From contig CM119267.1 in NCBI GenBank assembly GCA_051294375.1, positions 239,409-303,408 of the forward strand: a stretch of 64,000 nucleotides of DNA. Direction: 5' to 3'. Under the pieces are notes generated by a model. The model saw only the letters and a program-made list of their open reading frames with translations, searched no databases and was not told the DNA's origin. A program made the position numbers and the translations under genes. Positions 19,773-62,774 of the stretch are shown here, piece by piece; positions within the stretch are counted from its first letter, which is position 1; each line of letters opens with the position of its first letter. The stretch comes from Paraspadella gotoi (lineage: Eukaryota > Animalia > Chaetognatha).

Positions 19773-21975
19773 CGTTCGTCGTCGGAAAGAGACAAAAACG
19801 ATTAATAATTAATTAATTAATAAAAAAAAATTTGATTCAAAGAACAAAATCGCGATTCTGACAGATCGTTGGTGATGCTTAGGAGTATGGGTGAAGAGAG
19901 AGAGAGAGAGTGCGCGTATTTAAAAAAATAAACGTCAAGGTGACATTTGCTTGATTTTTCCTGAAGGATTTTGTTTTGTTTTGACAAACCAACGCACGAA
20001 TAAACACATGGCCGATTTGTTGCTGGCTTCTTGTTGGTGCCTTTCTGGTCGCGCCATATCCTTGATGCCGATCCAAAGGTGTTTATTTATTTTAATAATT
20101 ATTTATTTCAATGTAATAATTAGGATTTTTCTGTTACACCCGATTTCCTAAAAAACCGACTTGACTTCGCGTTGTGGTCAAAATGTTTGGTTTTGTGGTC
20201 GAAATTCGTGAACTCGTTCCGTGGTCGAGTCGTGACGTGGTCTTTAATTTGTGGGCGATTCTCTTTGACTCTCGGACTGAGAAGAATTTATTCCTTGGTG
20301 GTTGGGGTCAACGTCTCTCTCTCTATATCACTGCCCCTTTAAATCTCTCTCTCTCTCTCGCTTTCTGTTTTTCAATTTTTCTCTCTCCTACAAACTTACA
20401 CTTGAATAAATAGCTTCTTGTATCAGTTAAGAGCTAAATAACTGACTTTTTGAAAATTAAAACAAAAATTTTTAATATTTCGTGAGTAAAAGTGATATTT
20501 TCAATTTATCGCGAATGCAAAAGACTGAATGAGTAATAGACCTTGCCAGAAAATTTGATGTTTGTGATCCACCTTAGTAGTAGGGTTCAAAATGAGCTTC
20601 ATACATGCGCGGATGTTTTACAATATTCCTTTTTAAAAAATAATTATGGGAAATGCTGGCAACTTTTCAAAAAATAATGCTGAAAAACTGAAAAATTAGG
20701 GCATTTCTTTCTATCTCGAAGGGCATTAAGTATACTCAAACGAAACTATCCTTAACTAAAATTCCTACAGTTGCAGAAGTACTTACTATTAGAAAACGCT
20801 ATTTTGGTAGTGAACCAAGCTCGAAAACAAAGGAAAAAAATACAAAAAAGTTTTTGTAATTGAATTTTACATTAAAAATTAATATGTTTTGTTTGTTTTG
20901 TACTGGACTTTAAATAAATATTAAATTTTAATACATTTATAAATAAGTTATTTTCTATTCAAAATGCCTGGTTTAAAAAATTTATTATACCTATTATAAC
21001 AGTGTTAGTAAGAAAAGCATAGTGATAAAGGAGGATTAATATTATCTATTATATACAAACTGCATAATTTGAGTTCTGATACTTGTGGTACAATTACTGA
21101 TTTGTTCAATAATGAATATCCTGTTTATCTCTTTGTATTAATTAACATCCAAATTCTTTTTATTAAAACAAGTTTGAGCTAACAATGCCGGATCTGTCCA
21201 CGATAATTAATTAAGAAATCAATTAATTAATAAATTAATTAATATTAATTTTTTTGTGTCAAAATAGTTTTCCACATTGGTTCGCCTCTCAATCACAAAA
21301 CAACAATCTTGATCACAAAATTAATTACTTATTTATTCATAATTAATTAATGCAGCTTGAATTTATATTTAATATAAAAATAAAGAAAGCATAATCAAAT
21401 AGTGAAATAGATTGTTCAATTTTTCCATTTTAACTCATTTCCACTTGGAATCATATACTTTCCTACACACACACTAAATTTCATTCCAATCCATCCATCA
21501 AATCACGAGTAATTGGTGTTTTTTGCTAAGGTGGGATGGACGGATGGACAGACAGAGACGGACGGACATCATTTTTTTTGCATAATTTATCATAATTAGA
21601 TGTTCTGACAATTATTTGGGGGGCGGACCAACGGACCGACAGTAGTAAGGGAAGTCTCGAAGTCGACTGAAATAGGTCTGCGTGATTTCGATCGCGCCGA
21701 AAAGTAAGAGAGAATCTCGGAGCTCGAAACTGCTCCGAAAAGTTGAACCGAATCGCGATTTCCCGATCACTCGAAAAAGTAGAACCGAATCTCGAAATTT
21801 TCAAGCGCCGAGATTCGTAAGACAAAACTTGGAGAAATTTAAGGCTCGATTGAGACGGGCAAAAAAAAAAATTTCTTCGATCTGTGGTCTCAAAGCTCCC
21901 GACGAAAAAAAAACCCAAATCTCTCTCAATGTTTTTTGTCTCAGAGAAAACTCAATAACTTTGAGACTTTTAGTT
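9750..21975. repeat. Complex inverted/direct duplication, probably an assembly artefact
   Basis: 9750-10720 is inverted at 16910-17945; 10720-14800 is inverted at 18000-21975; 14810-15646 is repeated directly at 16030-16915; 15672-16030 is inverted against 16230-16575. Copies differ mostly by indels. Confidence 0.8.
21641..21800 (+). repeat. Left TIR of outer Polinton-like element
   Basis: Inverted match to 61928-62087; first ~70 bp identical. Confidence 0.9.
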
Positions 21976-22259
21976 CAAAATTAACTTTTTTCACTGTTAA
22001 ACGTCAAAAGTTTAATCAGATAATCCTTATTCAAAAATTTATATATGACCAATGCATTTTAAATAAAAGATTTTCGAATGAAATGTTTTGCATTTGTTTT
22101 TATTTAGAGAGAGTAGTATATAGTGGGATTTTAATATTGTATAGTTTATATAGGAGATTTTTGACCATTAAGAGAGAGAGAGAGAGTGGGCAGGGGGAAA
22201 TTTTGTAGGAAAAATTTAAAATGCAATTTGGACCGGATTTTTTAAAGTCAAAGAGTCCT

Positions 22260-22535
22260 AGTAGTTTCTTTATATAATTTAATATTTTTACGGTCCACAC
22301 TTTGGTACATAAAGAATTAACTGTGAAATTTTGCCGGTCATAATAGTAATAAACTTAGTATTTTGAAAATTTTTACGGTCCACTTTAAAGTACATAAAGA
22401 ATTAACTATGAAATTTTGTAGGAAAAATATTAAATGCAAGTTTGACTGGAAATTCTCCAGTCCTAGTTATTTCTTTATATAATTTAATATTTTTACGGTC
22501 CACACTTTGTACATAAAGAATTAACTATGAAATTT
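22260..22535 (+). repeat. Three degenerate direct repeats (tttttacggtccacactttgtacataaagaattaactatgaaatttt)
   Basis: Core recurs near 22285, 22370 and 22490. Confidence 0.75.
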
Positions 22536-22839
22536 TTCCTCAGCATTTTCTAGCTATATTATTTTTTTTCCCGATGCTTTTAAATTTTTCCCGACGCTTT
22601 TAAATTTTTCCCGATGTTTTTTAATTTTTATTTCCTATTTTTTTATTAAATTATTACTAGGCGTGAGGAGGAGGAGGCGACGCGAAGATCTTCTTCCCCC
22701 TCCCATTTCGCTTCCTTCTCCTTTTCGATCGGGGGCTTCGCGCAGCCACGAGATTTTTCCATTCTAGTTTCACTTCCCACTTTTTCCCTCTCCCGTTAAG
22801 ACCTATTTCACGCTCCTCTGTAATTGTTATTATTTTCGT

Positions 22840-23856
22840 GTTCGTTTTTTTCATTATATACGCTTCACCACTACCTCTCGTGTTTACTTTAGCCATAGTC
22901 TTATTTCAGGGTGGCGCCCAATGTGGAGACTTGTTCTCCAACCACGATCCGCCCTGGATCTCTTTATACTATTCTAATTTCAACAAAAATTCCTTTTTTC
23001 CTCGAAATTTCAACTTCGTAGCTTTTTTCTCTCTTTGTTTCGACTCCAAAACTTTTTTTCTCCTCCAAAATTTCCAAATTTCAATATTTTTCAAAATCCT
23101 TTTTTTTCCCTCGCTTTTTTTTCCTTCGACTTTCGAATTTTTTCTCTCTCTCCCGCCCTTTCCCGTCGACTTCCTAATTTCTCTCTTCTTTCTCTCTTCC
23201 CTTCCTCTTTCTCCTCCCCTCTACGCCTCCTATACCAAAATAAACCGAAAGAATAGAAAGCGGGTAGCCGTTAGGAAGAGGGACCTTAACCGAAACCTTC
23301 CTCCCTGAGTACCAGAAATCCCTGCAACAAAGGAGAGAGGACTCTCCTTTCGGAGATGGCCCAGGAGACGTGGAGGCTGACCGGAAACGGTCTAAGCAGA
23401 CGTGGAGACCGTCCGGAGACGGTCCAGGAGGACGTGGAGGCCGACCAGAAACGGTCTAAGGAGACGTGGAGGCCGTCCGGAGACGGTCTAAGGAGACGTG
23501 GAGGCCGTCCGGAGACGGTCCAAGGAGACGTGGAGGCCGACCGGAAACGGTCTAAGGAGACGTGGAGGCCGTCCGGAGACGGTCTAAGGAGACGTGGAGG
23601 CCGTCCGGAAACGGTCTAAGGAGACGTGGAGGCCGTCCGGAAACGGTCTAAGGAGACGGAGACCGGCCGGAAACGATCCGGAGTGACGAGGAGACTGACT
23701 AGGAGTTGGCAAAGTAAAAAAATAACGTAGGAAAAAATTTTAAATTTAGGAAAAATTTAAAAATCCTAAAAAAGGCCCCCCCCCCGCTGAAATAAGACTC
23801 TGGCTAAAGTAAACACGAGAGGTAGTGGTGAAGCGTATATAATGAAAAAAACGAAC
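22840..23856. mobile_element. MITE-like unit with ~70-bp inverted repeats enclosing a 32-bp minisatellite
   Basis: 22840-22909 is inverted at 23787-23856; no TSD identified. Confidence 0.6.
23362..23670 (+). repeat. 32-bp GC-rich minisatellite (ggagacgtggaggccgtccggagacggtctaa)n, ~9-10 copies
   Basis: Direct tandem periodicity with no spacers. Confidence 0.9.
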
Positions 23857-24800
23857 GGCATCACCTCAGGCAAAATGGGTTTATACCTCGTCAAACGCTT
23901 TTCGAATGACTNNNNNNNNNNNNNNNNNNNNNNNNNNNNNNNNNNNNNNNNNNNNNNNNNNNNNNNNNNNNNNNNNNNNNNNNNNNNNNNNNNNNNNNNN
24001 NNNNNNNNNNNNNNNNNNNNNNNNNNNNNNNNNNNNNNNNNNNNNNNNNNNNNNNNNNNNNNNNNNNNNNNNNNNNNNNNNNNNNNNNNNNNNNNNNNNN
24101 NNNNNNNNNNNNNNNNNNNNNNNNNNNNNNNNNNNNNNNNNNNNNNNNNNNNNNNNNNNNNNNNNNNNNNNNNNNNNNNNNNNNNNNNNNNNNNNNNNNN
24201 NNNNNNNNNNNNNNNNNNNNNNNNNNNNNNNNNNNNNNNNNNNNNNNNNNNNNNNNNNNNNNNNNNNNNNNNNNNNNNNNNNNNNNNNNNNNNNNNNNNN
24301 NNNNNNNNNNNNNNNNNNNNNNNNNNNNNNNNNNNNNNNNNNNNNNNNNNNNNNNNNNNNNNNNNNNNNNNNNNNNNNNNNNNNNNNNNNNNNNNNNNNN
24401 NNNNNNNNNNNNNNNNNNNNNNNNNNNNNNNNNNNNNNNNNNNNNNNNNNNNNNNNNNNNNNNNNNNNNNNNNNNNNNNNNNNNNNNNNNNNNNNNNNNN
24501 NNNNNNNNNNNNNNNNNNNNNNNNNNNNNNNNNNNNNNNNNNNNNNNNNNNNNNNNNNNNNNNNNNNNNNNNNNNNNNNNNNNNNNNNNNNNNNNNNNNN
24601 NNNNNNNNNNNNNNNNNNNNNNNNNNNNNNNNNNNNNNNNNNNNNNNNNNNNNNNNNNNNNNNNNNNNNNNNNNNNNNNNNNNNNNNNNNNNNNNNNNNN
24701 NNNNNNNNNNNNNNNNNNNNNNNNNNNNNNNNNNNNNNNNNNNNNNNNNNNNNNNNNNNNNNNNNNNNNNNNNNNNNNNNNNNNNNNNNNNNNNNNNNNN

Positions 24801-25260
24801 GGGCGAAAGCGGGCGGCGGGAGATCGTATGATACCATCGGTCAGTTCGACGTCAAAGGACTCGTCAAAGCCTCTCCGGGAGAGGCTCGCGTCCGGCATCG
24901 GGCAAGCGGGAACGGATATAGTCGCCTATTGCCGTTGGATTTCCTGTCTCGACGGCGGCACTGACGGGGTCAGGTTTTTCGGCGACGGGGGAAAGTAGAC
25001 GGCGCCGGGCCCTTGGAGACGATCGAGATTTTACCTTTCTTGTTGGCAAAGCGGTGGGTAAGTCGCTTGTCACCGGAATTAAAAACGTCTAAGACGACGA
25101 CGACCCTGTAGGCCGTGTCGTTGGGGACGCCGATATTGCTGTCGTGGAACTCTAGAGTCGCCGTCTGCGTCGTCTTAGCGTCTTCGTCCGCGACGGGCGG
25201 GTCGACGAGCCAGGCGTCAAATACCTCTTTTAGCTGCTGGCGAGCGCGGTCGTCTCCCAT
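24801..25260 (-). pseudogene. GC-rich frameshifted coding-like segment, unknown product
   Basis: ORF 24970-25260 (MGDDRARQQLKEVFDAWLVDPP...) has globular-like composition and continues in other frames to the N gap. Confidence 0.35.
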
Positions 25261-25377
25261 TCCAGCGTCATCAGGACCTCGTTATATTCGACTCGGCCTC
25301 TGTGGGCTATTTCCGGCCGGCCTCCCGTCTAACCGGGTCGCTCTCGGTCGGCCCTCTGCGTCTCCCTAGATCTGATT

Positions 25378-25487
25378 AATATTTAAAACCATTGTCAAAA
25401 TATTAAAATCATTGTCAAAATATTAAAACCATCGTCAAAATATTAAAATCATCGTCAAAATATTAAAATCGTCAAAATATTAAAACC
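25378..25487 (+). repeat. 21-bp tandem repeat (aatattaaaaccattgtcaa-like) x5
   Basis: Directly visible. Confidence 0.8.
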
Positions 25488-25634
25488 AATCACGTGAAGG
25501 AAGAAGAAAAAAGAGGAAGAGTAAAAGGATTTATTTTATTAATCGTCGCTTTTATAAAATTTCATTTTTTTATTACTAATTTATATTTATTTTAAAAATA
25601 TTTTTTATAATTTAAAATGTCCGATATTAGCGAC

Positions 25635-26300
25635 ATGGAAGACCATGAGTCTTACTTAAGGCACCCTAAAATAAAGAATGGTTCTTTTTGTTGCCTTTTT
25701 GGTGCATCTCAGTGTGGTAAATCAACCTTTATTAAAAGGAACCTATTGTCTCTATATAATAATAAAAATTGAATTATAAAATAAAACCATCTTTATTGTT
25801 TTGAATTTTCATTTAGATTTACTATTAGAAAAGGATCTTCAATTTGAAGACAAAGTCACGAAGCTAGTGTACAATTCATAGCAGAGAGGATGATAACATA
25901 AAGGAGCTGAAGAAAGCGTTTCCCACTTCTAATTTTTTGACGGAATTTCCACCAGACCTTGTCTCACTCGTGATTCCAGAGAAAAGGAATTATTAGCTAT
26001 AGTCAGAAACTTAGCAACAATAGATGCCCACCACAGAAAAATATCAGCAGTGTTTTTAACATTACAAAACTATGATGCTTTGTATAAATCTCACCCTTTA
26101 AACTCAGATCTTTAAATCACTTATCAAACTTGAAACATTTCATGAAAAAATTCTCTCTTAATTTAAAAAAAGACCAATCCCTGTTTGACATATATTCAAG
26201 TCATATCCAAAAAGAACCATTTTCGTATCTTGTACTTCATTTATAACCTTCGTGGGACAGACCAGAAGTATACTGTAACATTCTATTTTGTGATGTCGAT
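25635..26300 (+). pseudogene. Polinton-type (A32/FtsK-HerA-like) DNA packaging ATPase, degraded, one probable intron
   Basis: Walker A GSFCCLFGASQCGKSTFIK at ~25680-25737; after an AT-rich intron-like gap LLLEKDLQFEDKVTKLVYN; LATIDAHHRKISAVFLTLQNY resembles Polinton HHRNISVIFLTQN; KEPFSYLVLHL resembles PYGYLLIDL. Stops and frameshifts present; Walker B region appears deleted. Confidence 0.8.
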
Positions 26301-26362
26301 AGCCCGCCCCACTTTAAAAAGTTATCACAAGCGGGACGATTTAGATTGAGACGGAATAAAAG

Positions 26363-26580
26363 ATGAAATATTGTCAAAACTCAAAAATCTTGAAAGCATT
26401 GCATAAAGCATTTACCAATAAGGCTATTTTTATTGACTCAGTAAAAAATTAAAATTATAAAATCATTGCTTGAAATTTTAAAAAACATATATAACAAAGG
26501 TTCATTTTTTTTCACTTGAGGTTTTTTATACGTTCAATTTTTTTAGTGCCATATTATTCTCAAAGAAATTTTTTGGACTC
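26363..26580 (+). pseudogene. Small basic protein resembling the conserved gene downstream of the Polinton ATPase
   Basis: MKYCQNSKILKALHKAFTNKAIFIDSVKN/KIIKSLLEILKNIYNKG resembles the LLKLLSKA...AILxSA..LIxAICEIxLNxLKG pattern recalled for animal Polintons; synteny with the ATPase fits. Confidence 0.45.
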
Positions 26581-26631
26581 TCTCTCTCTGTCTCACTCAC
26601 TCAGTGTCTCTCTCTCTCTCTCTCTCTTGAA

Positions 26632-28210
26632 ATGGCGACGGCGACTACAATGGTAGTCTTTTTCTTTCTCTCTATCTCTACGCGGGGTATGGGGCACGTG
26701 ACCCCCTTCCCAATCCGTCTCCAAAGGAAACGGAATTATTTACGGTATTGATTTTTAAATAATTTTTTTAAATGGAATTTAAAATAATCCAGTTTTTTTT
26801 TACATTTTTTTGGTTTTTAGAATTGTACAAAACTTCAGCAAAGTGCCGAAGAACCCGAAAAGTATAAAAGTTTTTTTTATTTAAAATATTATTACTCAAA
26901 AAATGTGGATTTTAATTTTTTTCCTTTTTCTCTTTTTTACCCTTTTCTCCTGTCCCCTTTTTTTATTAATGCTCGGTCGTGATTAGGGATTGTAATGGCG
27001 AGGTGCCACCATTTATCGGTGGAGGGCATAGCCCTGATTTTGTCTAGGATGTAAGTGTAATTATTTTTTTAATATAAAATGTTTTTTAAAATTAATTTAA
27101 ACATTTTTTCCTATCAGAATTCGTTACAACATGACGCTGCCGGGGATGACGCCACCAACCTTCGTCAGGCCCCGGCTGGCAGAGCTGATGGGGTGGTCGC
27201 TGCCCCCAATCCACAGCAGCAGCAGCAACAGCCACAGCAGCAACAACATCCACAGCAGCACCCACAACGGTGGCAGCAGTGGGAGCAGGAGTGGCAGCGA
27301 CAGCAGCACCAGCGATGGCAGCAGGTTGGAGGGCAAGATCTCCAACTTTTCAAATTTATTACTTTCTAGACATTTGATAGAAACAATACAATTACAGGAA
27401 CTGTACCTCCAATACTATCCACCGCACATGCATGAATATATCAGATCGTATCCAAACTTCCCGTATCAACTTTTCCAACCACAATCACAACAAACGCAAC
27501 CGCAACAGACTCAACCACAACCTCAACCACAACACAAATTATTCACACCACACCCAGACTCCCCAAAGAGAAATAAGGGGTTATATGCGGAGGTGGACGG
27601 CGTGGGTGGAAGAATTATTGGATGCAAGAGAGGGCGAACGGTTCGTACCTTTCGTCAATCTCACCTGTGAAATTAACGGAAACGTTACGAACCACATTCA
27701 AGTGGAGCAATACGCCCACTTGGATGCAGACTCGTGTCAGGGTCCTTCGACCTTGAAGGAGAACGACACCAATAACTCCCCCTCCGCGACGTCCAAGCAA
27801 AAGCGGAGACCATCTCAGGTTAAACATCAAAGTTAAAATTTTTTTTTTTTAATTTTTCTATAATAATTAAAATCGTTTTTTTCTCTCTCTTCAGAATTCC
27901 TCCGACTTCTCCGATCATATTCAGGGTGCGCGTTTTAAGCGCCAAATGACAGACGTCACGAGAGACGTGTAAAACCGCCCACGACGAGTGCGGCAGATTT
28001 CCTGTATGAACCCATAATATATAGAGAATTAAAAAACATTTTTTAGTTTTGTGTTTTCAATCGTTTTTATTTTTTTCTCAGATGGATCAAATTGCCAAGC
28101 AAGTGTGTCGGCGGGCAGGCAACCCCACCATAGACGATGACGCCGAAGGCGCCAATGACGCCGAAGACGCCATGGGCAACGGCGACGACAAAACAACACC
28201 AAAAAGTAAG
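26632..28210 (+). pseudogene. Multi-exon gene remnant, unknown product (Gln/Ser-rich)
   Basis: GC-richer blocks bounded by AG/GT at ~26821-26862, 27119-27832, 27895-28003 and 28082-28205, separated by AT-rich intron-like gaps. Confidence 0.4.
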
Positions 28211-28412
28211 TTCAAACATTATTATTGTTATATAATTATACCCAGTTTTATAAAATAAAAAAATGAAATACCAAAAAATGTTTTTTTTCTTATCATAAAA
28301 AAAACAAGATGAAAGTCTCTTTTCATTGTTTTTATTTTGTCTTCCTCTTCCTCGTTTTCACTTTTCTGTTATTTCATTTTTCTAAACTTAAAAATTTTTC
28401 ATAACCTTCAAC

Positions 28413-29580
28413 ATGGATTCAGACTCCGATTCCGCTTATGAATCCAATGACGAGATTCAAAATCCAATTCCCAATAACATAACCCGGGCAATAATTATTT
28501 TTAACCAAAGATCCTATATCGTGCGTCTAAACAATACAGCCTACCATTTTAAATTACTCGTCCCCTCAATCTATCATATTAACCTTCCACCCCACCTAGT
28601 CCATCTTAACCCTCATTTATTGCCTGTTAACATTGCTAACCAAATTCCCCTCCCAGTATACGCCGTTGTCGTCATCAACTCCGACGCCGTTGAGCACGTC
28701 AACCACTTCGGCGTCGCCAAGTTCGTCTACTACTACGTCAAGCGCTCCGGCGCCGTTAAGCACAACCGCTCCGGCGTCGCCAAGTTCATCTAGTACGTCA
28801 AGCGCTCCGGCGCCGTTGAGCACAACCGCTCCGGCGTCGCCAAGTTCATCTACTACAACGTCAAGGGCTCCGGCGCCGTTGAGCACAACCGCTCCGGCGT
28901 CGCCAAGTTCATCTACTACAGCGTCAAGGGCTTCGGCGCCTTCGTCTACTACAACGTCAAGGGCTCTGGCGCCGTTGAGCACAACCGCTCCGGCGCCGAG
29001 CTCTTTATCTAATCTAATCTAACGTGGTCAATCACTCCGGCGCCGTTGAGCACAAGCGCTCCGGCGCCATTGAGCACAACCGCTCCAGCGCCGAGCTCCT
29101 TATCTACATCCTCAGCACCCTCGGCGTCGTCCTTGAGGGTGCAAAAGGATAAAAGTACTCCGGTGACATCAAGGACCCGTTTTCCTTGAACAATGACGTC
29201 ACCAAAATCTTCCATCCCATCTCGTCCGGGCCGCCGACGTTTATGACGTCGCCAGTAAACAAAACAATCTCAATAACATCGACCCCGGCGACGTCATCAG
29301 CGTCAAAGGCGACCTCAAAGGCGAGTTCCTCCTCCTTCTCCTCATCTACCCCGTCCCCAGCGTCCAATTCTACTTCAAATTGGATAATAGTAACTCTTTG
29401 TCTAGGTAATTTGATGATTTTAATTGTTATTTTAAGTTTTATTATTATTATTTTTAAAATGGTAAAGAAAAATGTATAAGAAATAAAACAATTAAAATCA
29501 TCAAATATTGTAATTGAAGACGAAGACGAAGAAGAACCGGAGGAGATAGTTTCCCTACCCCTAGCGTCCCATAATAAAAA
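28413..29580 (+). pseudogene. Mucin-like single-pass membrane protein, frameshifted
   Basis: ~60-bp repeats encode SSAPAPLSTTAPASPSSSTT; then a hydrophobic segment WIIVTLCLGNLMILIVILSFIIIIF, basic KMVKK and acidic tail EDEDEEEPEE. Confidence 0.6.
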
Positions 29581-49569: not shown

Positions 49570-49939
49570 TGTCAGTAATATTTTAATTAGCCTCCATTTA
49601 GTAATTAACTTTTATTTTCAAATTTTGTCTCTCTAAATATTCTTAGTCTCAAAGTTTAATATCCTGTAGATTCTCAGAGCTCGGCTCCTATTTTGTAAAC
49701 ATTTAGTGAATTAGATAAACAAAGGAAGAGAGACGGGAAGGAGGCAGATAATTAAGTGCATTCCATTTTTTGGTTTCACGGGATTAAGTCGATTTATTAA
49801 CATGGTTTAAATTACAATTTACAATTTGGACAAATCAACAATTATTTCAGGTAACTTCAAAAAATTAAGACTAGTCAATTATGTATCACCTAGCTCTCTA
49901 TCCGTCATCTTTTGAGGGCCACAAGTCACGTTACCAACA
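49570..49939 (+). mobile_element. LTR-like repeat, copy 1 (probable solo LTR)
   Basis: TGTCAGTAAT...ACCAACA, ~370 bp; direct repeat of 54887-55252. Confidence 0.65.
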
Positions 49940-50359
49940 AAACAATACTAATAATCCTGTCAACAAAACAAAAGTAAATGTGAACATGTAAACTTCAAAA
50001 AAAATACAATCGTCAACACTAAAATAATTATCCAGTTACGTGATCGATAGAATAATTGTTCCCGAAATTCAAAATAAAAAAACTATTTACAAGCAAATAC
50101 ATTTTTCAGAAAAACAAAATACAAAAGTAAGTAAATGGGGACCTGTGATATGAAAAAAAACTTTAATGCGTACGGTTGTAACCTGTTGGAAATGTACTTA
50201 GAGTTGGAGATAAGGAAAAAGTGACTTCAGCTTGTTATGACTTTTAAACATGACAAAAAAATCCATTTTAAAAAAAAAGGGGAAAGAATATGAAACTAAA
50301 TCGTATTAAGTATGATAATAATTGTTGTATTATTTTCTCTCTTTTCGTTGCTAAGTGAA

Positions 50360-51237
50360 TATTAGGAATTGTTTATTGTTTGCCAATACAACGATTTTTA
50401 TTTACATAGTACATGTTTCGACTCTGTTGATTCGAGTCTTCATCAGCTTTGAAAAACATTATCAAAAATGCTCTACACATTAAGTTAGAGAGAGAAAGAG
50501 AGTGAGAGAGATTGAGGGAGAGTTTCCAACAAAGGGCTGAGTAAAGGACAGTGGCCAGATGAGAGGACAGGTGAAGGTAAGAGCAGAGAAGAAGATAATT
50601 TTGAAATGGTGAAAAGTGAAGAGAAGAGAGAGAGAGAGAGAGAGAGAAATAATTACATTTGACAATGTACAACAAAGATAAATTTAGAAAAACTTAGAAA
50701 ATAGCTGAGATTTTGAATTAACAAAAGTTAAATAAGTAATAATGATGAAAAATGAAATGGAGGAATAGGTGGTGAGGGATAGATAAGTTAATAGTTAAGT
50801 GAAATATATATAGAGAAGAAAGAGCTCAAAATGAGATCATCTGTCTATGACAAGCCAATGACCCGATCATATCGTCAGCGTCCCACCTTTGTCCACCCGG
50901 GGGGGGCCAGCTCATTTTGAGCTCTTTCTTCTCTTATATATATTTCACTTAACTATTAACTTATCTATCCCTCACCACCTATTCCTCCATTTCATTTTTC
51001 ATCATTATTACTTATTTAACTTTTGTTAATTCAAAATCTCAGCTTATTTCTAAGTTTTTCTAAATTTATCTTTGTTGTACATTGTCAAATGTAATTATTT
51101 CTCTCTCTCTCTCTCTCTCTCTCTTTCACTTTTCACCATTTCAAAATTATCTTCTTCTCTGCTCTTACCTTCACCTGTCCTCTCATCTGGCCACTGTCCT
51201 TTACTCAGCCCTTTGTTGAACTCTCCCTCAATCTCTC

Positions 51238-51268
<31 letters not shown>

Positions 51269-51395
51269 AACTTAATGTGTAGAGCATTTTGATAATGTTT
51301 TTTCAAAGCTGATGAAGACTCGAATCAACAGAGTCGAAACATGTACTATGTAAATAAAAATCGTTGTATTGGCAAACAATAAACAATTCCTGATA
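50360..51395. mobile_element. Foldback/MITE-like near-perfect palindrome, ~470-bp arms, ~75-bp spacer
   Basis: 50360-50835 is the reverse complement of 50910-51395. Confidence 0.85.
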
Positions 51396-51439
51396 ATAAT
51401 TGTATAATAAAAATAAACGACAATCGATATACGGGACTT

Positions 51440-53860
51440 AAGTCATCAGATGCAGGACAATTGGCCGCACAGTGATTTATCGACTGATCATAACTCGCCC
51501 CGTAACTGATCCCGGTTTTGTGTGGAAATCCGACCCTGATTCAGCCTCTCTAATAGACAAAAGAGCTCGTCTACCGAGCATGTTCACGATGCACGTTCTT
51601 GGAGAACTAGGTAAATATTATAATATATATATTTGGTTTGTTTACAAGATCGTATATGTAAACAAAATATTGACGTATTTCCAGCCTTACGTCACCACGA
51701 CGACGAAGCCAGCAAAGAACGTCTCACTCAGAGAGTGATCGACGAGTGTGCGGCGGAACTCTACAGCGATGCTTATAAAAGAAGATTTTGGATTGAGCAA
51801 GAGAGAAGATTCATTGAAAACAACAACAACCACATTTCCCCCCAACCCAGCGAGTGGTATTCGCAAAGAGTTGCTTCTCCTCCAAATACTCCAAGTACAT
51901 GGAATGGTTCTTAACACCTAAGCCCGAAGTGGTGACGCAACTGCGAAAGGATTTTAAGAGAATGCTGGGCTAGTCACCGAAAAGCTCGTCAAAAGGACAG
52001 CTTACATAACTAACTGGTGAGAGATAAAAAATTAAAATATAAATAAATAAATAAATAAATAAATAACAAACTTAAATCAGGATGGATCTTGACGCCTCAG
52101 TCAACTGGTCGGGTAATTTCTCGGAAAGACTTTGGTTCGATCGCTGGTCCAACCCCTCCAACTTCGAAAACAAATACGATATATACGTTACCCGCGGCGG
52201 CAACGAAACACCACCGGAGTATGAGCGGGATGTCGATATCGTAGATCATAACACCACTTTTTTCTCCGAGGGAATAGGTACAATATATATATATATTTTG
52301 TTATTACTTAATTCTTACTTTTGTAATTATTTCACTTCTTACCTCATCTTTTAAAAAAAAAAAAAAAAAAGTCAACAGATCGATGCGTCAACGAGGAATT
52401 GCTCACGAGTCTACAGCAATTGGATTCTTGAGATCCTGAGGGGCATATTTATGTAGCAGGTACATCATTTTAAAATTATATATATATATATGTATGTTTA
52501 GCCTCTCTCTCTCTCTCTATCTCTCTCTCTTCTTTATTCTTTAAATTTATTTATTTATTCAGAATCCCTGGTTGTAAAAAAAGTTGGAAATTTTACAGCG
52601 ATCGCTTGTCAGATTGCTTAACGAAAACCCCGATGACGATAGATGCTCACCATGCTCAAAGTATTACATTGATTAATTGATCGATAGATCGATTGATTGT
52701 TTTATACTATTTTTATTTATTTTCTCTCTCTCTCTCTTTCTCTCTCTCTCCCTTTTTTTTCAAGATTCGCCAAACGTAATTCAGATCTCCAACATCTGAA
52801 CTCGGAACCGAAGAATAACATAATCAACGAAAGCGAATTGGATCAATGGTGGAAGGCCTACTCAATAAGCTCTGATCGAGAAACGGTTAAATCAATTTTG
52901 GCCATTGCATCCGCGACTACTATTAATTCAAACGATCTAACAAACTTTTCGTTTATTATTGATCCAAATCGCGGTAATTGCGACGTAGGTTTTTAGTCCA
53001 AAAATCCTTGTCAAAATAAATTTTATTGGCAAAGTGTTTTTAGACGTGAGGGAGGTTTTAGGTCACAACCAGACGATGATTTTAGAATGTATGTGAATTT
53101 TAGCAGCCCAGGGGTCGGTTTGACTGTTAAATTCACACGCATGGGGTCTATTCTTGTTCTGCCCGATCTCGATTCGCTTAATTCAAGACTTCCCATTCTT
53201 TATTTAAACTTTGTAGATACGAGATCTTAAAAGCTGTCCGCAAAAATGACGTCCCTATAGATAAATATAGATCGTTTTTCATGTGTTTTAAGGATTATTT
53301 TCCCACTCATGCTATGCATCAATTACATTTCAACTCATAATTAAATCTTTGTTTGTTTAAAAATTGTAACAATTGAAAAATGATGATAAAAATTTTTCTC
53401 TCTTTCTCTCTTTATTTAATAGTAATTAAAGTGATTTTACTGCTAATGATAATGATTTCAGGACGGAATTTAGAACGTCTTAAACTGTTTAAAATCAGAC
53501 CTTCAAAAATCTTCTTTAAAAAACCTGGCTCATTAATTTCACCTTCTCCTTATGTCTACAGGTAATTTAAATATTAATTCTTTTCTCTCTCTCTCTCTAT
53601 CTCTCTCTTTTCTTTCTCTTTTTTTTCTTTTCTTTCTTATCAATAAAAGATACAAATATCTTTAACAAATATTTTCTTTTTATTTCTTAGGCACTTTATA
53701 ATCAACGAATTTGACTTTCTTCATATATTGACATTACTGTTGAGACTCTTGGATGAACAGAATAAAAAATCTTCATCTTCTAAACAAGACCAAGACTCTG
53801 CTGAACAAAACTTACCTATGGATAATGACGCCAGTGACATTACTTCGATCAAAGATCTGT
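51440..53860 (+). pseudogene. Large multi-exon gene remnant of the inner element, unknown product
   Basis: Phase-consistent GT-AG joins: HVLGEL|ALRHHDD, AYITNW|MDLDASVNW, SEGI|DRCVNEE, HIYVA|ESLVVKK. Scattered stops. Confidence 0.6.
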
Positions 53861-54085
53861 AATTAAAATGTTTCATTTATGATTTACTGCAGAATGCAAA
53901 ATTTAAACCAAAACCTATCAACGTTCATAAACAGAATTAAAATTTTTTTCTGGAAAACACTTATCTCCATAGCCCTTGTCAGTCTGGTGATTTCAAATTG
54001 GTTTTCACAAAAACAACGGATTCCAACGTCACCGACTTAAAAAAAGATAAATGGAATCCAAAATTTTTTGTTTTAGACTGAAAAC

Positions 54086-54196
54086 ATGTTCACTTCAAAG
54101 AATATAGATCTGGCTACGCTGCAACGTGAACTTGCAGCAAAACGAAAGCAGAAAGGCACACGTCGCCGAGGGAGAAGGGGGCAAAAGAAAAGAAAA
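54086..54196 (+). pseudogene. Exon encoding an Arg/Lys-rich peptide
   Basis: MFTSKNIDLATLQRELAAKRKQKGTRRRGRRGQKKRK followed by gtaag. Confidence 0.4.
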
Positions 54197-54886
54197 GTAA
54201 GACAATAATGACTAAAAAAAAAAAGTGTAAAAAAATAACACTTTTATTTACTTTTTTTAGAAAAAATAAAAAGAAAATATAAAAAACTTAATCATCAAAA
54301 TGAAAAAATCGCAAATCCAGCACGTCACTTTGTTTTTTCTCTTAAAATACTAATATTTATTATGATTGATGCCTTGGAATATTTCTTGTAAATACAGTTC
54401 AAAATTTATAATCGATAAATATACTTACTATTCTTTTATAAATCTACTACCTAATTTGACAATGATTGATGAGGAAGAGATAAACCTCAAGAACGTATAG
54501 CTATTTAGCTTAATGACTTAATTATTTCAAAGAATTTCTCTTTAGCACATCTGCTTTGATTACTCGGTGAAAAAAAGCCCAAAAAAAAATGAGAAAAGAG
54601 AGAGAGAGAAGAAAACTAGTGAAATCACAATTACACTTAAGAAATAGGAAATTAATTAAGAAGTGACAAATTTACCCACATTCTTTTATATATTCTTTTA
54701 TTCTTTTATCTGATATATTTTATTCTTGGGTAATTTGTTAAAAAAAAAATAAAAACTGGGGTGGGAAAAAAACACTTAATCATTTATGGAAAAGATAAGG
54801 GTTTTTTTTTAAACCTTAGCCATTGTTACACAAACACAAAAACGATAATATTTCCCTCATCTGAGTTTTAAATTCAAAATGGAAAC

Positions 54887-55265
54887 TGTCAGTAATATTT
54901 TAATTAGCCTCCATTTAGTAATTAACTTTTTAATTTCAAATTTTGTCTCTCTAAATATTCTTAGTCTCAAAGTTTAATATCCTGTAGATTCTCAGAGCTC
55001 GGCTCCTATTTTGTAAACATTTAGTGAATTAGATAAACAAAGGAAGAGAGACGGGAAGGAGGCAGAGAATTAAGTGCATTCCATTTTTGTTCCAAGGGAT
55101 TAAGACGTAACATTTATCATGGTTTAATTACAATTTACAACTTGGGCAATCTACAATTATTTCAGGTAACTTCAAATACTAATTAGACAGATTATGCATA
55201 ATCCAGCTCTCTATCCGTCATCTTTTGAGGGCCACAGACCACGTTACCAACATGGTGGCCAGCGT
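54887..55265 (+). mobile_element. LTR-like repeat, copy 2, followed by a PBS-like sequence
   Basis: TG...CA at 54887-55252, then TGGTGGCCAGCG, similar to the tRNA-Leu PBS TGGTGGCAGCG of Gypsy elements. Confidence 0.65.
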
Positions 55266-55729
55266 TGTTCGCTTATCGGACAGCCTCGAAGTTATCTGTA
55301 CGTACGAATATTTGCTTTTGTCCGAGTTGATAAGAGGGAAATAAAATTATTTTTCTTTTCCCAATGATACGATATGCATTGTGAAGTGATGAAAATTTTT
55401 CTTAAAACGTTTAGTATATTTTTTTTGTTTTTTGTTTTAGCCTCTCTGACATTAGATGATATATTATTGTGGTTGTTGACATTTTCGGGATGTTTGGGGA
55501 TTTTTGCGATAACCAAAACATAAATCCAGAGCCGAATACATAGATCACGGATATTTTTTTTGACAGTTATTTTTCGGGTTTGGACGATTTCGATTTTTCT
55601 CTCCACAATCGATTCGGATTACTTCACGTTAAGACGATTGCGAATTTTTCTTCGAAAAGTTGGATTATTGCGTTTTTGCGCGTGTCTCGATCTTTGCAAA
55701 TTTTAACGACAAGTAAAAAAAGAAACGGA

Positions 55730-57032
55730 ATGGATAACGACAAGTGGGTCGAGGAGATGGAATCGATGGACGAACGGGTTGGGAACCTGTCCGTCGGGGA
55801 CGATTCCTCTGCGTCAGATCGAGAGCGCCTGGGCACTGTTGGGGGCGCCGGAAGATCTGGTGTTCCCGCGGGTTACTTTTCGGATGGAGATGATGATGAT
55901 GACTGGAGATATGAAGTGGACGCTAACGGATATGGTTTTGGCTGTCACGCATTCGAGAGAGAGAGAGGTGCGAGGAATGTGGAGGTTTTCCTCCTGGATA
56001 GAGAGATGTTGGCGGTGACGCCGCCCGGCACGATTGACGGGTTCGGAATGGACCTACTGGTTGAGGGGCCGGGAACCGCGCTGGGACACCCGCGGTTTAT
56101 GCGTCTATTTCCGGCGGGGGAAGATGCATGGGCGGCGAAGATGCCGCTTAGGTTTTATAAATGGACTGCCACGCTCTCGATTTGTCCCAGAGTTTTGGGT
56201 GAGGAGCGAGTGGCAAGGCCTCCGAGTCCCGTTACGGACTCCGACTCGGAGGGAGAAATGCCGCCTCTGGAAAAGGTGGGTGACGACCGATCGGAGCCGG
56301 TGGTGGACCGGGATGTCGAAGTGATGCCACTCCTTCAGAGGGTGTGGTACGACCTCGTGAGGAGAATTAATATCCTACCGGCGGTTCCGGCTCAAATGGC
56401 GATTGATGGCCGGCTAATCAAAACCACGTCGACAATGGTTTACTTAAAAAAAAAAATTCGAATGGCCGTTTATGCTGGAGGGCGAGCTGCCCAGGTTCTT
56501 GGAAATGAGAAAAAGTGGGATCAAGACATGCGATTCTTTTTTTGAAGACAACTTGTATCCCGTGATGGATTTCATGGATAGGCATCCTCGTAAGATTTTT
56601 CAAATTCAGACGCGCCCGTTTTTTTGTAGAAAAAACGAGGTTGTGCTGATTCGGCGACGGGGAATGCCATGGCACTGGGACGACAGCGCCATAGATCGAT
56701 ATGATGGAACACATAGAAGCGCGGGCCGCCAGATGAGACGGCAGGTGCACCAACAGGACCCTCCGAGAGAAAAGGCCCGTCGTAGACAACCGTTGAGATC
56801 ACACAGGACGGTGGTGAATCTTGAATTATTGCTGGAGGAGTGGGACGGTATGCTCCGCTCCAGATTTGCTGGGGACTTGGTATCTTCGGCCTGGTTGCAT
56901 CCGCGGATGCTGTTGGTGCCATCTTTTACGGTGGTACAGGCTAAGGAGAACAGCAAGCATGGGCACTATCTAAGGCAGCTCCGATGGTGCAGGAGCAAGA
57001 TTCCGGGACACCTACGACAGATCTGGTTTTAA
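55730..57032 (+). CDS. Orphan ~430-aa protein split by one frameshift in an A11 run
   Basis: MDNDKWVEEM... to ...LRQIWF; removing one A at 56446-56456 joins ORFs 55580-56545 and 56472-57032 (YLKKKFEWPFMLEGE). Confidence 0.6.
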
Positions 57033-57373
57033 AATACGGAACGATTGACGAATAACGGTGAGATTCGATGTGATCTATGTATTTTATTGCTTCTAATGCT
57101 ATTAGTTTCGACGTTTTGGTTATTTGTCGATAATCTCGATTCCTGTTTTCTGCCTGAAATTTTTCTTATTTGCATGCTATAAACACGATTGAAACGAACA
57201 GTATATTTAGTAATATTAAATAAAGGCACGAGGTGTTACGTTATATTTTGTTGGCGATTCGAATAACATAAATTAGTTTATACTGCGATTTTTCCTTCCT
57301 TTGGGTGGGAGGGGTAGTATACCGAAAGAAATGAAAATTCAGCCGAATAAACGAATTTATACTATTTAACAGG

Positions 57374-58831
57374 AATACGGGCAAACAAGGCCGGAAACGA
57401 TAAATTGGACACGGTGTTGAGAAAATTTTTCGATAAACAAAAGAGCAACGAAAGTGAACTAAAAATTGTATTAAAATTGCAAGGACGAAATGTTACTTTA
57501 CGATATTTAAAAGCTTTCAAATCTAATTTGAAGACTATCGAAAATGATTGTGTTTTAAATCATTTAAAGGATTTCTCTTCAAACTCAGAAACTATTTTGA
57601 AATCATCAAAAGTCGAGTCTTTTAATTCTCCGCAAGTCCTAGTTACTCAATCTCCAACTAATTACTCAACAGAAAAAGATGTTTCCCCTTTCTCACTCTC
57701 TATGATAACAAAGCGATTGTCTCAACCGCAACTCCTTTCATCAATGCTATAATAAACAAAAATCATGCGCTTCCTTCGACCGTTTCATCTCCCACTCTCA
57801 CCTCTCGTTTCTCTCCGATGGTCGAAAGTATCGCAAGAGAATGCAACAGTCGAGAAAATATTCCCCACACATTTGTCACCAACGGCGGAAGTTACAACGG
57901 AAGTTAAGGCAACGTTCGCGAAACTCCCCCCTCCAGCTTTCTCTCCGACGATCAAAAATGTAACAAGTGACCCGATGAACAGTGCAACAATCACTGGACT
58001 GTCAATCAGTTTGCCACTATTTCTACTGTTCTCGGTAACCTTTGGATTGGTTTTCAAAAAGCTTCGTCAACAATCGGTATGTTTATTTATATAATCACTC
58101 TAAAATTAAATACAAAACATATAATAAAAATTCCGATTTTTTTTTTTCAGCTGAATGAAAGGGTCATGGTTTGGCGAAACAAGCGTTTCTACGACGGAAT
58201 AAGGAGACAAGAATTAAAACTGCGACGTATTCCATTCACCCTCGAAAATCCCAACTTCGTTAGGGTAGCCGCCACCTCACTACAAGATCATCTCGTTTTC
58301 TTCAACCGCTCAAAGTAATTTTTTTCCATTTCTCTCTCTCTCTCTCTCTTTATGTATTTTATTAATATTACTACTAATTATAACGATATTTACAGTCAAC
58401 ACACCTGACTCCGGCAGCGTTCAAGAAAATGACTATGAAGAAATCGAGAGTTTGGAGTGGGATGGTTTCATTGAACCGATCAGGTAAAAAAAATGAATGT
58501 GTAATAATACAAAGATGGTTTGATTAATATTTAAATATTCCACAATGCCAACAGCAACAATGACAACAGCAGTGACAATATATCAGCAGAAGGACAAGCT
58601 GTAACAGCAAAGGAAGAGGAAGAGTATCTCGAGCCCATCAGGTAAACAAAAATATTTTTTGTTTAATAAATCATCATTTAAAAACTAAAACCGTTCTTTT
58701 ATTTATTTACTAGCGTATTGCAACGACCAAGAAGCAATTCTGTTAAACTACCATTACCATCAAAAAATACAAAAATAAAAAAAAGACGTTTCTTAACTCT
58801 TCAGAGACTAAATCGAAGTGACAGCATCTGA
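57374..58831 (+). pseudogene. Spliced single-pass membrane protein with tyrosine-motif cytoplasmic tail
   Basis: S/T-rich ectodomain with NxT/S sites; TM ITGLSISLPLFLLFSVTFGLVF followed by KKLR. Exons 58151-58314, 58396-58482, ~58545-58641 and 58714-58831 give ENPNF, ENDYEEI and EEEEYLEP; the last joins are phase-consistent, one frameshift needed near 58265. Confidence 0.65.
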
Positions 58832-58844
58832 TTCGTTAAATGTC

Positions 58845-59395
58845 ACCATCAACCTAAAATGTTTCTTTCATAATAACAGTCTCAAACAAACATTCTTTGT
58901 TTTACCTTTCGTCTCCAAATTCTTCGAGTTCGAATCCATTTAGCTGTCCTGTATTAACTGTCGTTCGTTTTTCTGAAATACGATTAAACAAGTTCTAGGC
59001 GAATTATATAAAAGAAAACAAAAGGTCACAACTTACTAGTTTATGACAAAATTTCCATAATGCTATAAAACCAATAAGCACAATGAATAAAATGACCGCA
59101 ATGACTGTTCCAATTAAAATGTTATTAGTCGACGTTGCAAGAGGTGTTGAAGTAATTTCAGAATTAATTGTATAATTCCTTTGTAAATTAAAGTTCTTTA
59201 ATAAGCACGTATTGTGTTTGTTTACTTCGTTACAAACTTTGTAAGATTTGAAAATAGTAAAATTACATTTTTCTCTTGCGATTTTTATACATTTAAAAAA
59301 AATTCTTCCATTTTAAAGTTTTATATCAAAGTGAAAGTAATATCTGACAACTCCACAAGGAAATCTAATCAAAACTGTTTTAACTAGGTTCGTAC
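58845..59395 (-). pseudogene. Spliced single-pass membrane protein remnant
   Basis: Minus strand: ...CNFTIFKSYKVCNEVNKHNTCLLKNFNLQRNYTINSEITSTPLATSTNNILIGTVIAVILFIVLIGFIALWKFCHKL then gtaagt; short downstream exons. Confidence 0.55.
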
Positions 59396-59803
59396 TTGAG
59401 ATCGATCCGATGTTTTTTACTTTAAAACTTTTTTACTTTTTTCTTTTCTAACCTCTAAATAAGACTCAGTGAATTTAGCCTTGATGAACCTAAAACTTTT
59501 TAAAATTCGAAAAATTTTTTTTTTTTTTTTAACTCAGAGCTCAAACTCTCTTTAAGGCCAGGGATCACTCAACCTAAAATTATAGAAATCTTAATTTACT
59601 GTATCTTAATCATTTTCTCATATCTTGTAAGAGGTTTTCTATTGAAAAATAATTGAAAACTTTTAAAAATCTACATAAAATGTTCATAAATATTTAAACA
59701 AAATTTTTTTTTCGGTAAAACTAGATTTTCAGGAGAAAAATATTTTTTTATATGTAAGCNNNNNNNNNNAATTTAACTTTCTTGATAAAGTGAAGTTAAA
59801 AAC

Positions 59804-60085
59804 GAAGAGTTGCAGCTCAAACTGTTGGACTCTTCATGAAGAAAAAAATATATTGGGCAAGAAAGGAAAGGAGGGGGAGAATCTATGAGCGCATTTTTGA
59901 AAAATTGTTTTTCCTTTCAAAGATATCAAGGAATTAATCCCAAAAATTGATTAAAATAATCAAATTTTATATGAAGGAAGACAAATTTTGAAAGTATCTT
60001 TTCATAGAATTGGAGTTCGTGACCGAAAGGTAATTCATGCCAAATTTAATGAGAAACCGCCTTACCGTTTGGGCTGCAACTCTTC
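59804..60085. mobile_element. Small MITE-like unit with ~21-bp inverted ends
   Basis: gaagagttgcagctcaaactg versus ccgtttgggctgcaactcttc. Confidence 0.5.
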
Positions 60086-60331
60086 AAATAGGTTTCTTTT
60101 ATTTTATATAGTACAAAAAAAATCGAAAAAACGATGACGCCTTTGAAAAAATAGTTAAGTGAATACATTTTCGGAATCGTCAGGAGCTCTCCTTTCGAAA
60201 TCCGAGCTCGGTTTTAGCCTAATTATAATTTGAATTGAGTGATCCCGGACCTTAAAAATCGAAAGTTGTCTGTTTTGGCACTTTTCCTTACTACTAGCAA
60301 CGGCAGTGCCAACGAGAGCGCTTCGACTTAG

Positions 60332-61035
60332 TCAAAGAAGGCAGCGATGGACGAATTTCCAGAAGAAGGGGTTTTTACACAGAAGAGGTGGCAGGACCGG
60401 TGCTGCCACCACCGCCGCCGCCGCCACCTTTGGGACCGTCGTCCCCTCCACCACTCCATGCGCCGCCCCAGCGCGAGCCGCCGCCGTCTGGAGAGTGGCG
60501 AGGCGGTCGGCCGCGAGGCTCGCCGAAAAAGGAAGACGAGGCTGGGGAGGAGCCCGCCTCAAACGCCTCCAAACGCGACGAATAACCGCAGACTGGAACA
60601 GAATACATTTAAAATATCAAAACTAGAATTTTTAAAGAAATAATAAAGGAATAGTAACTCACGAAAAGAGCGGAAAGAAAGGCGCTTATGAAGAAAAGCG
60701 CCACGACGACGACCCACTCGAGAGGCGACCATCCAGCGTCCAGAGGGGCGAGAGATGAGGATGCCGATGGGGAAGGCGAAGGCGGCGAGGATGAGGATGA
60801 TGGCGTCGACACCGACGTGGATGAAGATGGGTCACTTGGCTGGATGGGATCCATCCCGAAAATCAAAAAAAAAAAATCAAAGTTAGATAATTAATATAAA
60901 TAGGAATATTTTGTCGTCACTTTTTCAACAATTCTTACCGTCGTAAACTTCCAAGGCGTGGCAGCTCCACAACGCCTGGGCGCGGCTTTGCCCGCAACGA
61001 AGCGCCGCTCTATAACAGGCGTCGTAGGTCGCCAT
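60332..61035 (-). pseudogene. Spliced single-pass membrane protein of the outer element
   Basis: Ser/Pro-rich stalk, then WVVVVALFFISAFLSALF|SAVIRRVWRRLRR across a gtgagt...ttccag intron (phase 0). Upstream exon MATYDACYRAALRCG. Confidence 0.55.
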
Positions 61036-61456
61036 GAACGAAAAAGAGAGAGTGAGAGACGAACGAAGAGAGAGAGACGAAAATAGAGAAAGAGAAACCT
61101 TAAAAAAATGTTTTTGCGAATTTTTTTTTATCGAACAAGCAACGCGAAGAAGAGATCTAAACGAACTGCACATTTTTCCGGGCAGGTGTCCCGAAGCTCG
61201 TTAAAAATATGACAGATATTATCATTATTTTTGTTTATCTATTCTAATTGGTCAGTTTTATCTTTTTTTCCCGTTATTGGTCGGATTCTCAGTCGCATCG
61301 CATGGGCAAGTTGTCACCAAGATTCCCGGTAATACCCGCGACTCTTTTCTCTCTCTCTCTCTCCCCTTTATCTCATCTTTTATATTTTACATGTCTCTCT
61401 CTCTCTCTCTCGCGAATTTTCAAGTCACCAAGATTCGCCGGTAATACCCGCGGCGA

Positions 61457-61496
<40 letters not shown>

Positions 61497-61927
61497 TTTT
61501 CTTTCTCTACGAGTTATTGATTACTTCAAATAGCAAATTAAATTATTAGTTTTTCAAACGATCTCAAAAGAATTAGAAGGTCTAAGAATAGTTGACAGTT
61601 TCAATCTTGAGAAAAGTATTTTAAGAATTTTAGTCACCTAAAAATTTTTCTTTTCTAGCAATCCATAGCTCCGAGTTAGAGTCTTTCGATTCTCAGCCTT
61701 CTTTTCAGAAAATTTCTAGCTCCGAGATTTGACTTTACTTTTCGGAGAACTTTCGAGTTCCGAGATTCGATCTTACTTTCCCGGGCGATCGAAACAAATT
61801 TACTCGGAGCTCCGAGTCTTTCGGTTTTCGATCTTTTTTTCAGAAAATTTTGAGTTTCGAGATTCGGTTCTTTTTTTTCGGAGCAGTTTCGATTTCCCAG
61901 ATTCTCTCTTACTTTTCTGGGCGATCG

Positions 61928-62087
61928 AAATTTCGAGAGTCCATTCTATTTTTTCGAACGATCGGGAAATCCCGATTCGGTTTTACTTTTCGGAGCAGTT
62001 TCGAGTTCCGAGATTCGCTCTTACTTTTCGGCGCGATCGAAATCACGCAGACCTATTTCAGTCGACTTCGAGACTTCCCTTACTACT
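61928..62087 (-). repeat. Right TIR of outer Polinton-like element
   Basis: Ends ...GACTTCCCTTACTACT, followed by TSD ACCGAC. Confidence 0.9.
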
Positions 62088-62774
62088 ACCGACAAAGTGA
62101 ATTATAGAGCCGGAATTTGCTGTAAGCAGATCCGGCTAAAAAAATGCTTCAATAAGTTTCAATATATTGATTGCTGCAGCTTATATAGTTTATCTTTAAA
62201 AAATCATAAACCGATAAGAATTTAAAAAAAATATTGCTATCAAGAATTAGTCAATTATCTGTTTATAAAGAGTTACCTAAATTTATAAAGCAAGCTTTTT
62301 AAAAAATATTAAAAAATAACCCTTTTTAAAAAGGAATATTGTAAAACATCCGCGCATGTATGAAGCTCGTTTTGAGCCCTACTACTAAGCTGGATCACGA
62401 ACTTCAAATTTTCTGGCAAGGTCTACTGAGTAATAGTAATCGTGAAAAGAAATAATAAAAATGCAAACATTTGAAAGCGGAGGGTAAAAAAAAACGGGGA
62501 AAAAATAATAAACAAACAAAACAAATAAAATAAGACAAGAAAAACATAAAATAAAATAAAACTTAAACATAAAATAAAACAAAAACAATGAGAGAAAAAA
62601 AATTACTGAAAATAAGTCAAAAACTAAAAAAGAAAAAAAGTTAAATCAAACAAAAATTAAACAATAACAATATATAATAATATAAATAATAAAAACAAAC
62701 CGACTAATAAACTAAAATGATTAAAATAATAAAGATAAAATAGAAATTTAAAAAACAATCCCAAGCCCGTTTCC

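Follow-up and report, generated by a model that had tools for sequence, protein, structure and literature searches.

A 40-kb element with Polinton-type ends in the chaetognath Paraspadella gotoi, probably a decayed and non-autonomous derivative

Introduction

Polintons, also known as Mavericks (Polintoviricetes), are reported to measure 13-25 kb and to be flanked by target-site duplications (TSDs) of 5-8 bp (PMC10748475; for general background see PMC8502044, PMC6431247 and PMC11131425). In vertebrate Mavericks, (AGT)2//(ACT)2 is the commonest end motif, the TSD is 6 bp long, genes occur in the orders atp-pm-pz and int-mcp, and 96% of the loci are degraded (PMC8097293). Core genes are described as intronless in vertebrates (PMC8097293) and in nematodes (10.1101/2022.07.12.499685), a property that bears on where and how Polintons are transcribed and on whether virions form. 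Cargo is already known as well, in the form of intron-containing genes in nematode Mavericks (10.1101/2022.07.12.499685) and of transposons in insect polintons (10.1101/2025.02.07.637071). Here we describe an element of 40,447 bp in the genome of Paraspadella gotoi (assembly GCA_051294375.1, contig CM119267.1), located at positions 21641-62087 of a 64,000-nt stretch, hereafter the window, in the assembly as given. An earlier note, made from the letters of the window, had singled it out as a Polinton-like element with intact ends and atypical cargo. Our analysis indicates that it is probably a decayed, non-autonomous Polinton derivative that would have been integrated by a helper and was, likely, enlarged later by nested insertions.

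Results

The element has Polinton-type ends

The element starts with AGTAGTAAGG at 21641 and ends with CCTTACTACT at 62087, i.e., with (AGT)2//(ACT)2 termini, and read inwards both outer arms begin AGTAGTAAGG. These terminal inverted repeats (TIRs) are 100% identical over the first 70 nt, 93% over 160 nt and 88% over ~198 nt. Directly outside them, both flanks carry an exact ACCGAC, a match with a chance, at the composition of the window, of 1.3e-4 for ACCGAC itself and of 3.5e-4 for any exact 6-mer pair. Thus, the termini, the TIRs of ~160 bp and the perfect 6-bp TSD that had been reported for this locus all hold up. In its ends, its TSD and its TIR length, which falls within the reported 46-1,447 bp, the element resembles Polintons and Mavericks.

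We then turned to public contigs, of which nine runs from three studies, all of one organism, hold part of 24801-34800, and compared the contigs of four runs with 21001-25500. A 589-nt contig of run X1, which is possibly the source sample, spans the left junction without differences, and a joint specific to the right arm is present in the contigs of all four runs. Three of the four also contain a diverged related terminus, differing by 20 substitutions and 10 gaps over 147 nt. A 25-nt TIR pattern had no match in the viral contig collection.

A broken packaging-type ATPase gene lies near the left end

The packaging-ATPase remnant mentioned in the earlier note proved to be a real, broken gene (Table 1). 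A word-indexed search with one of its frames returned no match, but a full phmmer search with the same kind of query (X at stops) succeeded, finding, in a set of 1.84 billion proteins, 12 with E<=0.001 (best 2.6e-9). Eleven of these form one ATPase family; the twelfth, P0002 (1659 aa, 25 stretches), matched the off-frame middle of the query and was excluded as spurious. None of the ten family clusters looked up carries a name, and the members sit on contigs of up to 17.8 kb. A profile of the family matches the window in three frames between 25.8 and 26.3 kb (best E 1.4e-21), and the pieces of the window gene are ~30-55% identical to family members. Walker A is intact in the window copy, which is otherwise broken by frameshifts and stops and has lost the stretch with Walker B (P0001 residues 91-105).

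A structural model of the family (predicted local distance difference test, pLDDT, 88.9) resembles the adenoviral IVa2, A32-like, virophage and adintovirus ATPases of a viral structure library. Compared with the PDB, the model resembles FtsK/HerA proteins, with VirB4 first (Z 15.9) and the STIV2 packaging NTPase B204 at Z 14.1 (root-mean-square deviation 3.5, 181 aligned). As modelled, then, the family appears to fold like the A32/IVa2/FtsK packaging ATPases, another likeness to Polintons. At the level of sequence the family is divergent, and all the database members found are unnamed, unlike the ATPases of described Polintons and Mavericks. Pfam scarcely detects it and it barely touches Pox_A32, a PHROGs search gave weak, scattered matches only, queries with the ATPase and with the integrase of its relatives (see below) found no match in viral contigs, genome contigs or phages and so yielded no full-length relative, and a PDB sequence search returned nothing significant for the ATPase, integrase or post-integrase profiles.

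Relatives in metagenomes share a Maverick-like gene order

The ATPase family is encoded at seven metagenome loci (L001-L007). On the three longest loci (L002, L004 and L007), the ATPase is followed on the same strand by proteins of ~115 aa, ~270-330 aa, ~385 aa and ~280-315 aa. Of the three ~385-aa proteins, two have weak matches to Pfam rve that stay below the cut-off (E 2e-5 and 4e-5). This order, atp-small-medium-int-next, seems to parallel the atp-pm-pz and int-mcp orders of vertebrate Mavericks, the names pm, pz and mcp being assigned by position.

A remnant of the small gene lies directly after the ATPase of the window, with E-values of 2e-4 and 0.01 when a target of 450 nt was searched and of 0.17 across the whole window. 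The profile of the relatives' integrase (four relatives) found nothing in the six frames of the window (best independent E-value, iE, 0.47), and neither did the profiles of the ~280-aa and ~290-aa genes (best iE 0.073 and 0.87). Support for Polinton ancestry of the element thus comes from its ends and TSD, from its ATPase family and from the conserved order of the ATPase and its next gene.

No other core gene was detected

We found no rve integrase belonging to the element itself; the only integrase within it is of BEL type, and this one, being truncated and internally deleted, was rejected as a possible integrase of the element. Across 286 open reading frames (ORFs) of at least 52 aa, the single Pfam match above the curated cut-off was the DUF5641 of that BEL integrase. 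PolB, major capsid and protease had no Pfam match among these ORFs or among 150 of the 241 shorter ones, no transposase family was found in the same 286 and 150 ORFs, and a scan of the window for PolB catalytic motifs gave one unconvincing match and otherwise none. Such family searches (for integrase, PolB, capsid and adenain) had been proposed along with the original description, and they leave the element without detected pPolB, integrase, capsid and protease, unlike Polintons and Mavericks. The element appears to work like a non-autonomous Maverick and, given its size and the lack of a detected integrase of its own, is not an intact Polinton.

Four nested pieces account for over half of the element

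At 40.4 kb, the element lies outside the 13-25 kb of Polintons and the 12.7-24.6 kb of intact vertebrate Mavericks. The earlier note had subtracted a nested 11.4-kb element and a ~6-kb BEL retrotransposon, both of which we confirm, and had taken the ~23 kb left as near the usual Polinton size. The arithmetic is right (22,915 bp), but two more pieces, of the type recognised by long terminal repeats (LTRs) and primer-binding sites (PBSs), had been ignored. Since the four pieces together make up ~22 kb and leave ~18.5 kb, the size argument carries no weight.

The largest nested piece is itself AGT-ended. Its ends read AGTA(A/G)TAAGG and agree with the outer ones at only 11 of the 13 terminal bases; it lies between GGCAAC and AGCAAC and is flanked on both sides by coding-like sequence. 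It also holds orphan, probably spliced genes of its own. Profiles of the relatives detected no Polinton genes in it, and a tblastx comparison of the outer with the nested element showed no credible protein-level paralogy.

The second piece is a 5'-truncated BEL/Pao retrotransposon, a group not known outside animals. As in BEL/Pao elements, DUF5641 (E 4.6e-20) follows the integrase, of which pieces remain along with what we take, by eye, to be the end of the reverse transcriptase and RNase H motifs. Unlike BEL/Pao elements, the piece has no 5' LTR, gag or protease, is internally deleted, and carries ~3 kb of orphan ORFs (32060-35230) between the integrase and a 3' LTR-like stretch that starts at ~35239.

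The other two pieces are likely LTR-type as well, each with a motif, at 22.9 and 41.8 kb, that is presumably a PBS. In the left one, an LTR-like end at ~22909 is followed by the PBS-like motif, an array of 32-bp tandem repeats, a gap of 889 Ns and a GC-rich orphan ORF; contig depth over this piece is far greater than over the TIR region.

The packaging gene of the relatives is interrupted by intron-like stretches

In five of six informative loci, the ATPase gene is broken by an AT-rich stretch at the same point of Walker A. Complete intron-like stretches with GT-AG or GC-AG ends occur at this point in L002, L004 and L007, and only a matching acceptor, near the ATPase starts, in L001 and L003; the ATPase of L006 is uninterrupted, and L005 starts downstream and is uninformative. 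In the window copy, an AT-rich insertion of ~78 nt, with a T-rich tract ending in AG and no canonical donor, lies ~8 codons beyond the relatives' shared break. Judged from sequence, this divergent lineage is thus predicted to carry introns in its core ATPase gene, in contrast to the intronless core genes of intact vertebrate and C. plicata elements. A literature search of partial coverage found nothing on intron-bearing Polinton core genes. Introns had also been claimed for the gene set of the element itself; here a crude scan, with 19 plus-strand and 10 minus-strand candidates of which some are clearly false, is only suggestive, and it is in the relatives' ATPases that the claim finds support.

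The remaining DNA consists mostly of broken orphan coding blocks

Most of the remaining ~18.5 kb is made up of broken orphan coding blocks with AT-rich, intron-like gaps between them and some hydrophobic segments (Table 1). The blocks at 26630-29480 have no Pfam match at the cut-off, and three orphan ORFs returned nothing significant in a PDB sequence search; Atlas results for two orphan ORFs showed low recognition and were not used. Two of the coding regions had been labelled H15-like and PC4-like from a resemblance seen by eye, and neither label gained support. The H15-like ORF (36.8-37.0 kb) has no Pfam, PDB or Atlas match, and the PC4-like exon (46.6-47.2 kb) has no family match, its single-sequence model (pLDDT 38.8, no fold match) being too poor to judge; for lone, broken sequences such as these two, tests of this kind are weak. 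The same literature search found nothing on PC4 or H15 cargo in Polintons.

Non-core DNA inside Maverick ends is in itself familiar: nematode and insect cargo Mavericks likewise contain intron-containing non-core genes and nested transposons. However, those elements (~2-5 kb of cargo in the nematode elements, 3.2 kb in the insect example) keep the canonical core genes, whereas here the core is nearly gone and non-core DNA is almost everything.

Table 1. Features of the element in window coordinates, and intron-like stretches at three metagenome loci
Feature	Coordinates	Strand	Remarks
Left TSD copy, ACCGAC	21635..21640	.	
Left TIR, (AGT)2 start	21641..21838	+	
Likely nested LTR-retroelement-type repeat	22660..25372	+	Boundaries approximate
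Broken packaging-type ATPase gene	25617..26330	+	Family profile, alignment to members
Remnant of small post-ATPase gene	26364..26500	+	First ~46 of ~115 codons, two frames; PM-like by position only
Orphan, probably spliced, Q-rich and S/T/P-rich coding blocks	26630..29480	+	End in a hydrophobic (predicted membrane) segment
5'-truncated BEL/Pao retrotransposon	29615..35710	+	~6.1 kb; limits approximate
Orphan ORF ("H15-like")	36390..37049	+	One internal stop
Two more broken orphan coding regions	37513..41550	+	
Likely LTR-type piece	41560..43300	+	...CA, then PBS-like motif at 41771, then broken G/D/R-rich ORF
Large, probably multi-exon orphan gene with "PC4-like" exon	45800..48859	+	Cut by nested element
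Nested AGT-ended element	48860..60295	.	11,436 bp, 46-nt TIRs, 5-of-6 TSD
LTR-like copies in nested element	49570-49939, 54887-55252		Second followed by PBS-like motif and ORF
Foldback in nested element	50360-51395		~1 kb, near-perfect, 122-nt spacer
Coding-like, proline-rich continuation of interrupted gene, and GC-rich blocks	60296..61100	+	
Right subterminal repeats and right TIR, (ACT)2 end	61679..62087	-	
Right TSD copy, ACCGAC	62088..62093	.	
Intron-like stretch, L002	357-447		GT-AG
Intron-like stretch, L004	848-977		GT-AG
Intron-like stretches, L007	284-506 and 671-818		GC-AG (first), GT-AG (second)

The assembly is noisy

The element contains two N gaps, of 889 nt and 10 nt. Moreover, contigs of X1, X5 and X7, three of the four runs compared, have a block of 1.67 kb (23707-25372) the other way round, which may reflect a local inversion or a misassembly. 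Outside the element, 9564-15650 is an indel-rich inverted duplicate of 16240-21968 that includes the left TIR and its flank; at 10.7-13.3 kb, where the left end is duplicated, 67 gaps stand against 13 substitutions, and 179 against 31. The duplicate looks like a long-read foldback artefact. We do not count a third copy of the TIR, at 11089, as an insertion of its own, because it has the same flank and the same indel-rich error pattern.

Contig cover is uneven. Summed depth is low at 21.75-21.9 kb and several- to many-fold higher at 22.2-23.7 kb in X5 and X7. Because such depth is no measure of copy number, this does no more than hint that the interior piece is a distinct and more abundant repeat. 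Contigs of X7 do not cover 21901-22050, and those of X9 do not cover 24751-25350.

Discussion

How could such an element arise? We propose that most core genes would have been deleted or replaced by orphan spliced genes, with the ends kept, and that the polymerase and retroviral-type integrase of a helper would have replicated and integrated the element in trans by acting on its (AGT)2 ends, the 6-bp TSD being the mark expected of such an integrase. A helper of this kind would later have brought in the 11.4-kb element, which would have inserted into an exon of the outer one; the BEL and the two LTR-type pieces would also have come later and then been truncated themselves. The TIRs have decayed only modestly, suggesting that the ATPase gene was already ruined when the insertion took place; this fits mobilisation in trans, with the proviso that assembly errors could inflate that ruin.

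Several points weigh against this proposal. The assembly is noisy, and some of the gene breaks may be errors. PolB, capsid and protease were looked for with Pfam and motifs, tools of little power for so divergent a family, and the 889-nt gap, shorter than the relatives' integrase gene of ~1.16 kb, could conceal part of a gene. In the relatives, the last, post-integrase ORF has no PDB match and is minor-capsid-like by position alone. Lastly, among the contig matches listed for the four runs, there was no loose end at the TIR, no second insertion site and no helper copy.

Three other explanations have to be weighed. The element could belong to an autonomous, very divergent virus-like family, with replication and capsid genes that are spliced orphans too diverged or fragmented to recognise; indeed, the ~18 kb of non-nested DNA contains several genes that look coding and are probably spliced, Pfam is nearly blind to the ATPase family as well, and a core gene of the relatives has predicted introns. 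However, profiles of relatives whose ATPases are 35-45% identical detect the ATPase and the short remnant of the next gene, and not the integrase or the two other neighbours, and the readable orphan blocks are often of low complexity (Q-, S/T- or P-rich) and lack PolB catalytic motifs, so that we regard autonomy as unlikely. It seems distinctly unlikely, too, that the element is some other large DNA transposon, one that has AG..CT ends, makes a 6-bp TSD and carries a Polinton fragment (the ATPase and its next gene) as a passenger. Polinton homology does cover merely ~0.9 kb of the 40 kb, and the nested 11.4-kb element combines the same kind of ends with no detected Polinton gene; yet the end motif seen most often in Mavericks is (AGT)2//(ACT)2 with a 6-bp TSD, the 286 and 150 ORFs searched gave no transposase family, and two independent Polinton features coincide at this locus.

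An assembly chimera, in which the ends of two copies were scaffolded together around an interior from different loci, would account for the N gaps, the inverted copy of the left end with its flank, the block inverted relative to three of four runs, and the fact that none of the nine runs contains more than 79% of the words of 24801-34800. An exact TSD across 40 kb would be improbable by chance in a chimera, however; the nested element is flanked by a 5-of-6 TSD of its own and, left and right, by coding-like sequence, and a contig spans the left junction. We thus consider a chimera highly unlikely, and a decayed, non-autonomous Polinton derivative the probable identity of the element. As for the claim of the earlier note that it represents a divergent family with its own gene set, the lineage is divergent, but a gene set of its own is unproven for this copy, because no replication, integration or capsid gene was detected, over half of the element is nested, and the cargo labels are unsupported.

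More speculatively, the relatives and the element may belong to an undescribed, spliced lineage of animal Polintons, with spliceosomal introns at more than one site of the packaging gene, that spawned satellites of 11-30 kb with Polinton ends and conserved spliced orphan genes of their own (DNA-binding, membrane), riding on helpers. This broader idea is doubtful, and we offer it tentatively. If true, a conserved ATPase intron would imply nuclear, spliceosome-dependent expression and would explain why ORF-based surveys overlook such elements. The locus itself is one dead copy in a noisy assembly; the intron-bearing relatives are a testable lead. Be that as it may, Polinton ends that carry 40 kb, with one AGT-ended element inside another, bear on how genes and retroelements could be ferried.

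Surroundings of the element

The left flank at 21449-21610 consists of a short repeat, very abundant and built of GGAC/AGAC units, and a run of similar units recurs in the second intron-like stretch of L007. Outside both ends lies a 103-nt inverted repeat pair (20537-20639 and 62323-62425, 95% identical), probably an interspersed repeat. A host exon with a Senescence (spartin-like) domain is located on the minus strand at 62778-63410, ~0.7 kb from the right end of the element; like the BEL/Pao piece and the TTAGGG-type repeats, it points to an animal host. At the other extreme of the window, positions 1-560 form a composite repeat of ~140 bp with TTAGGG units, subtelomere-like in appearance.

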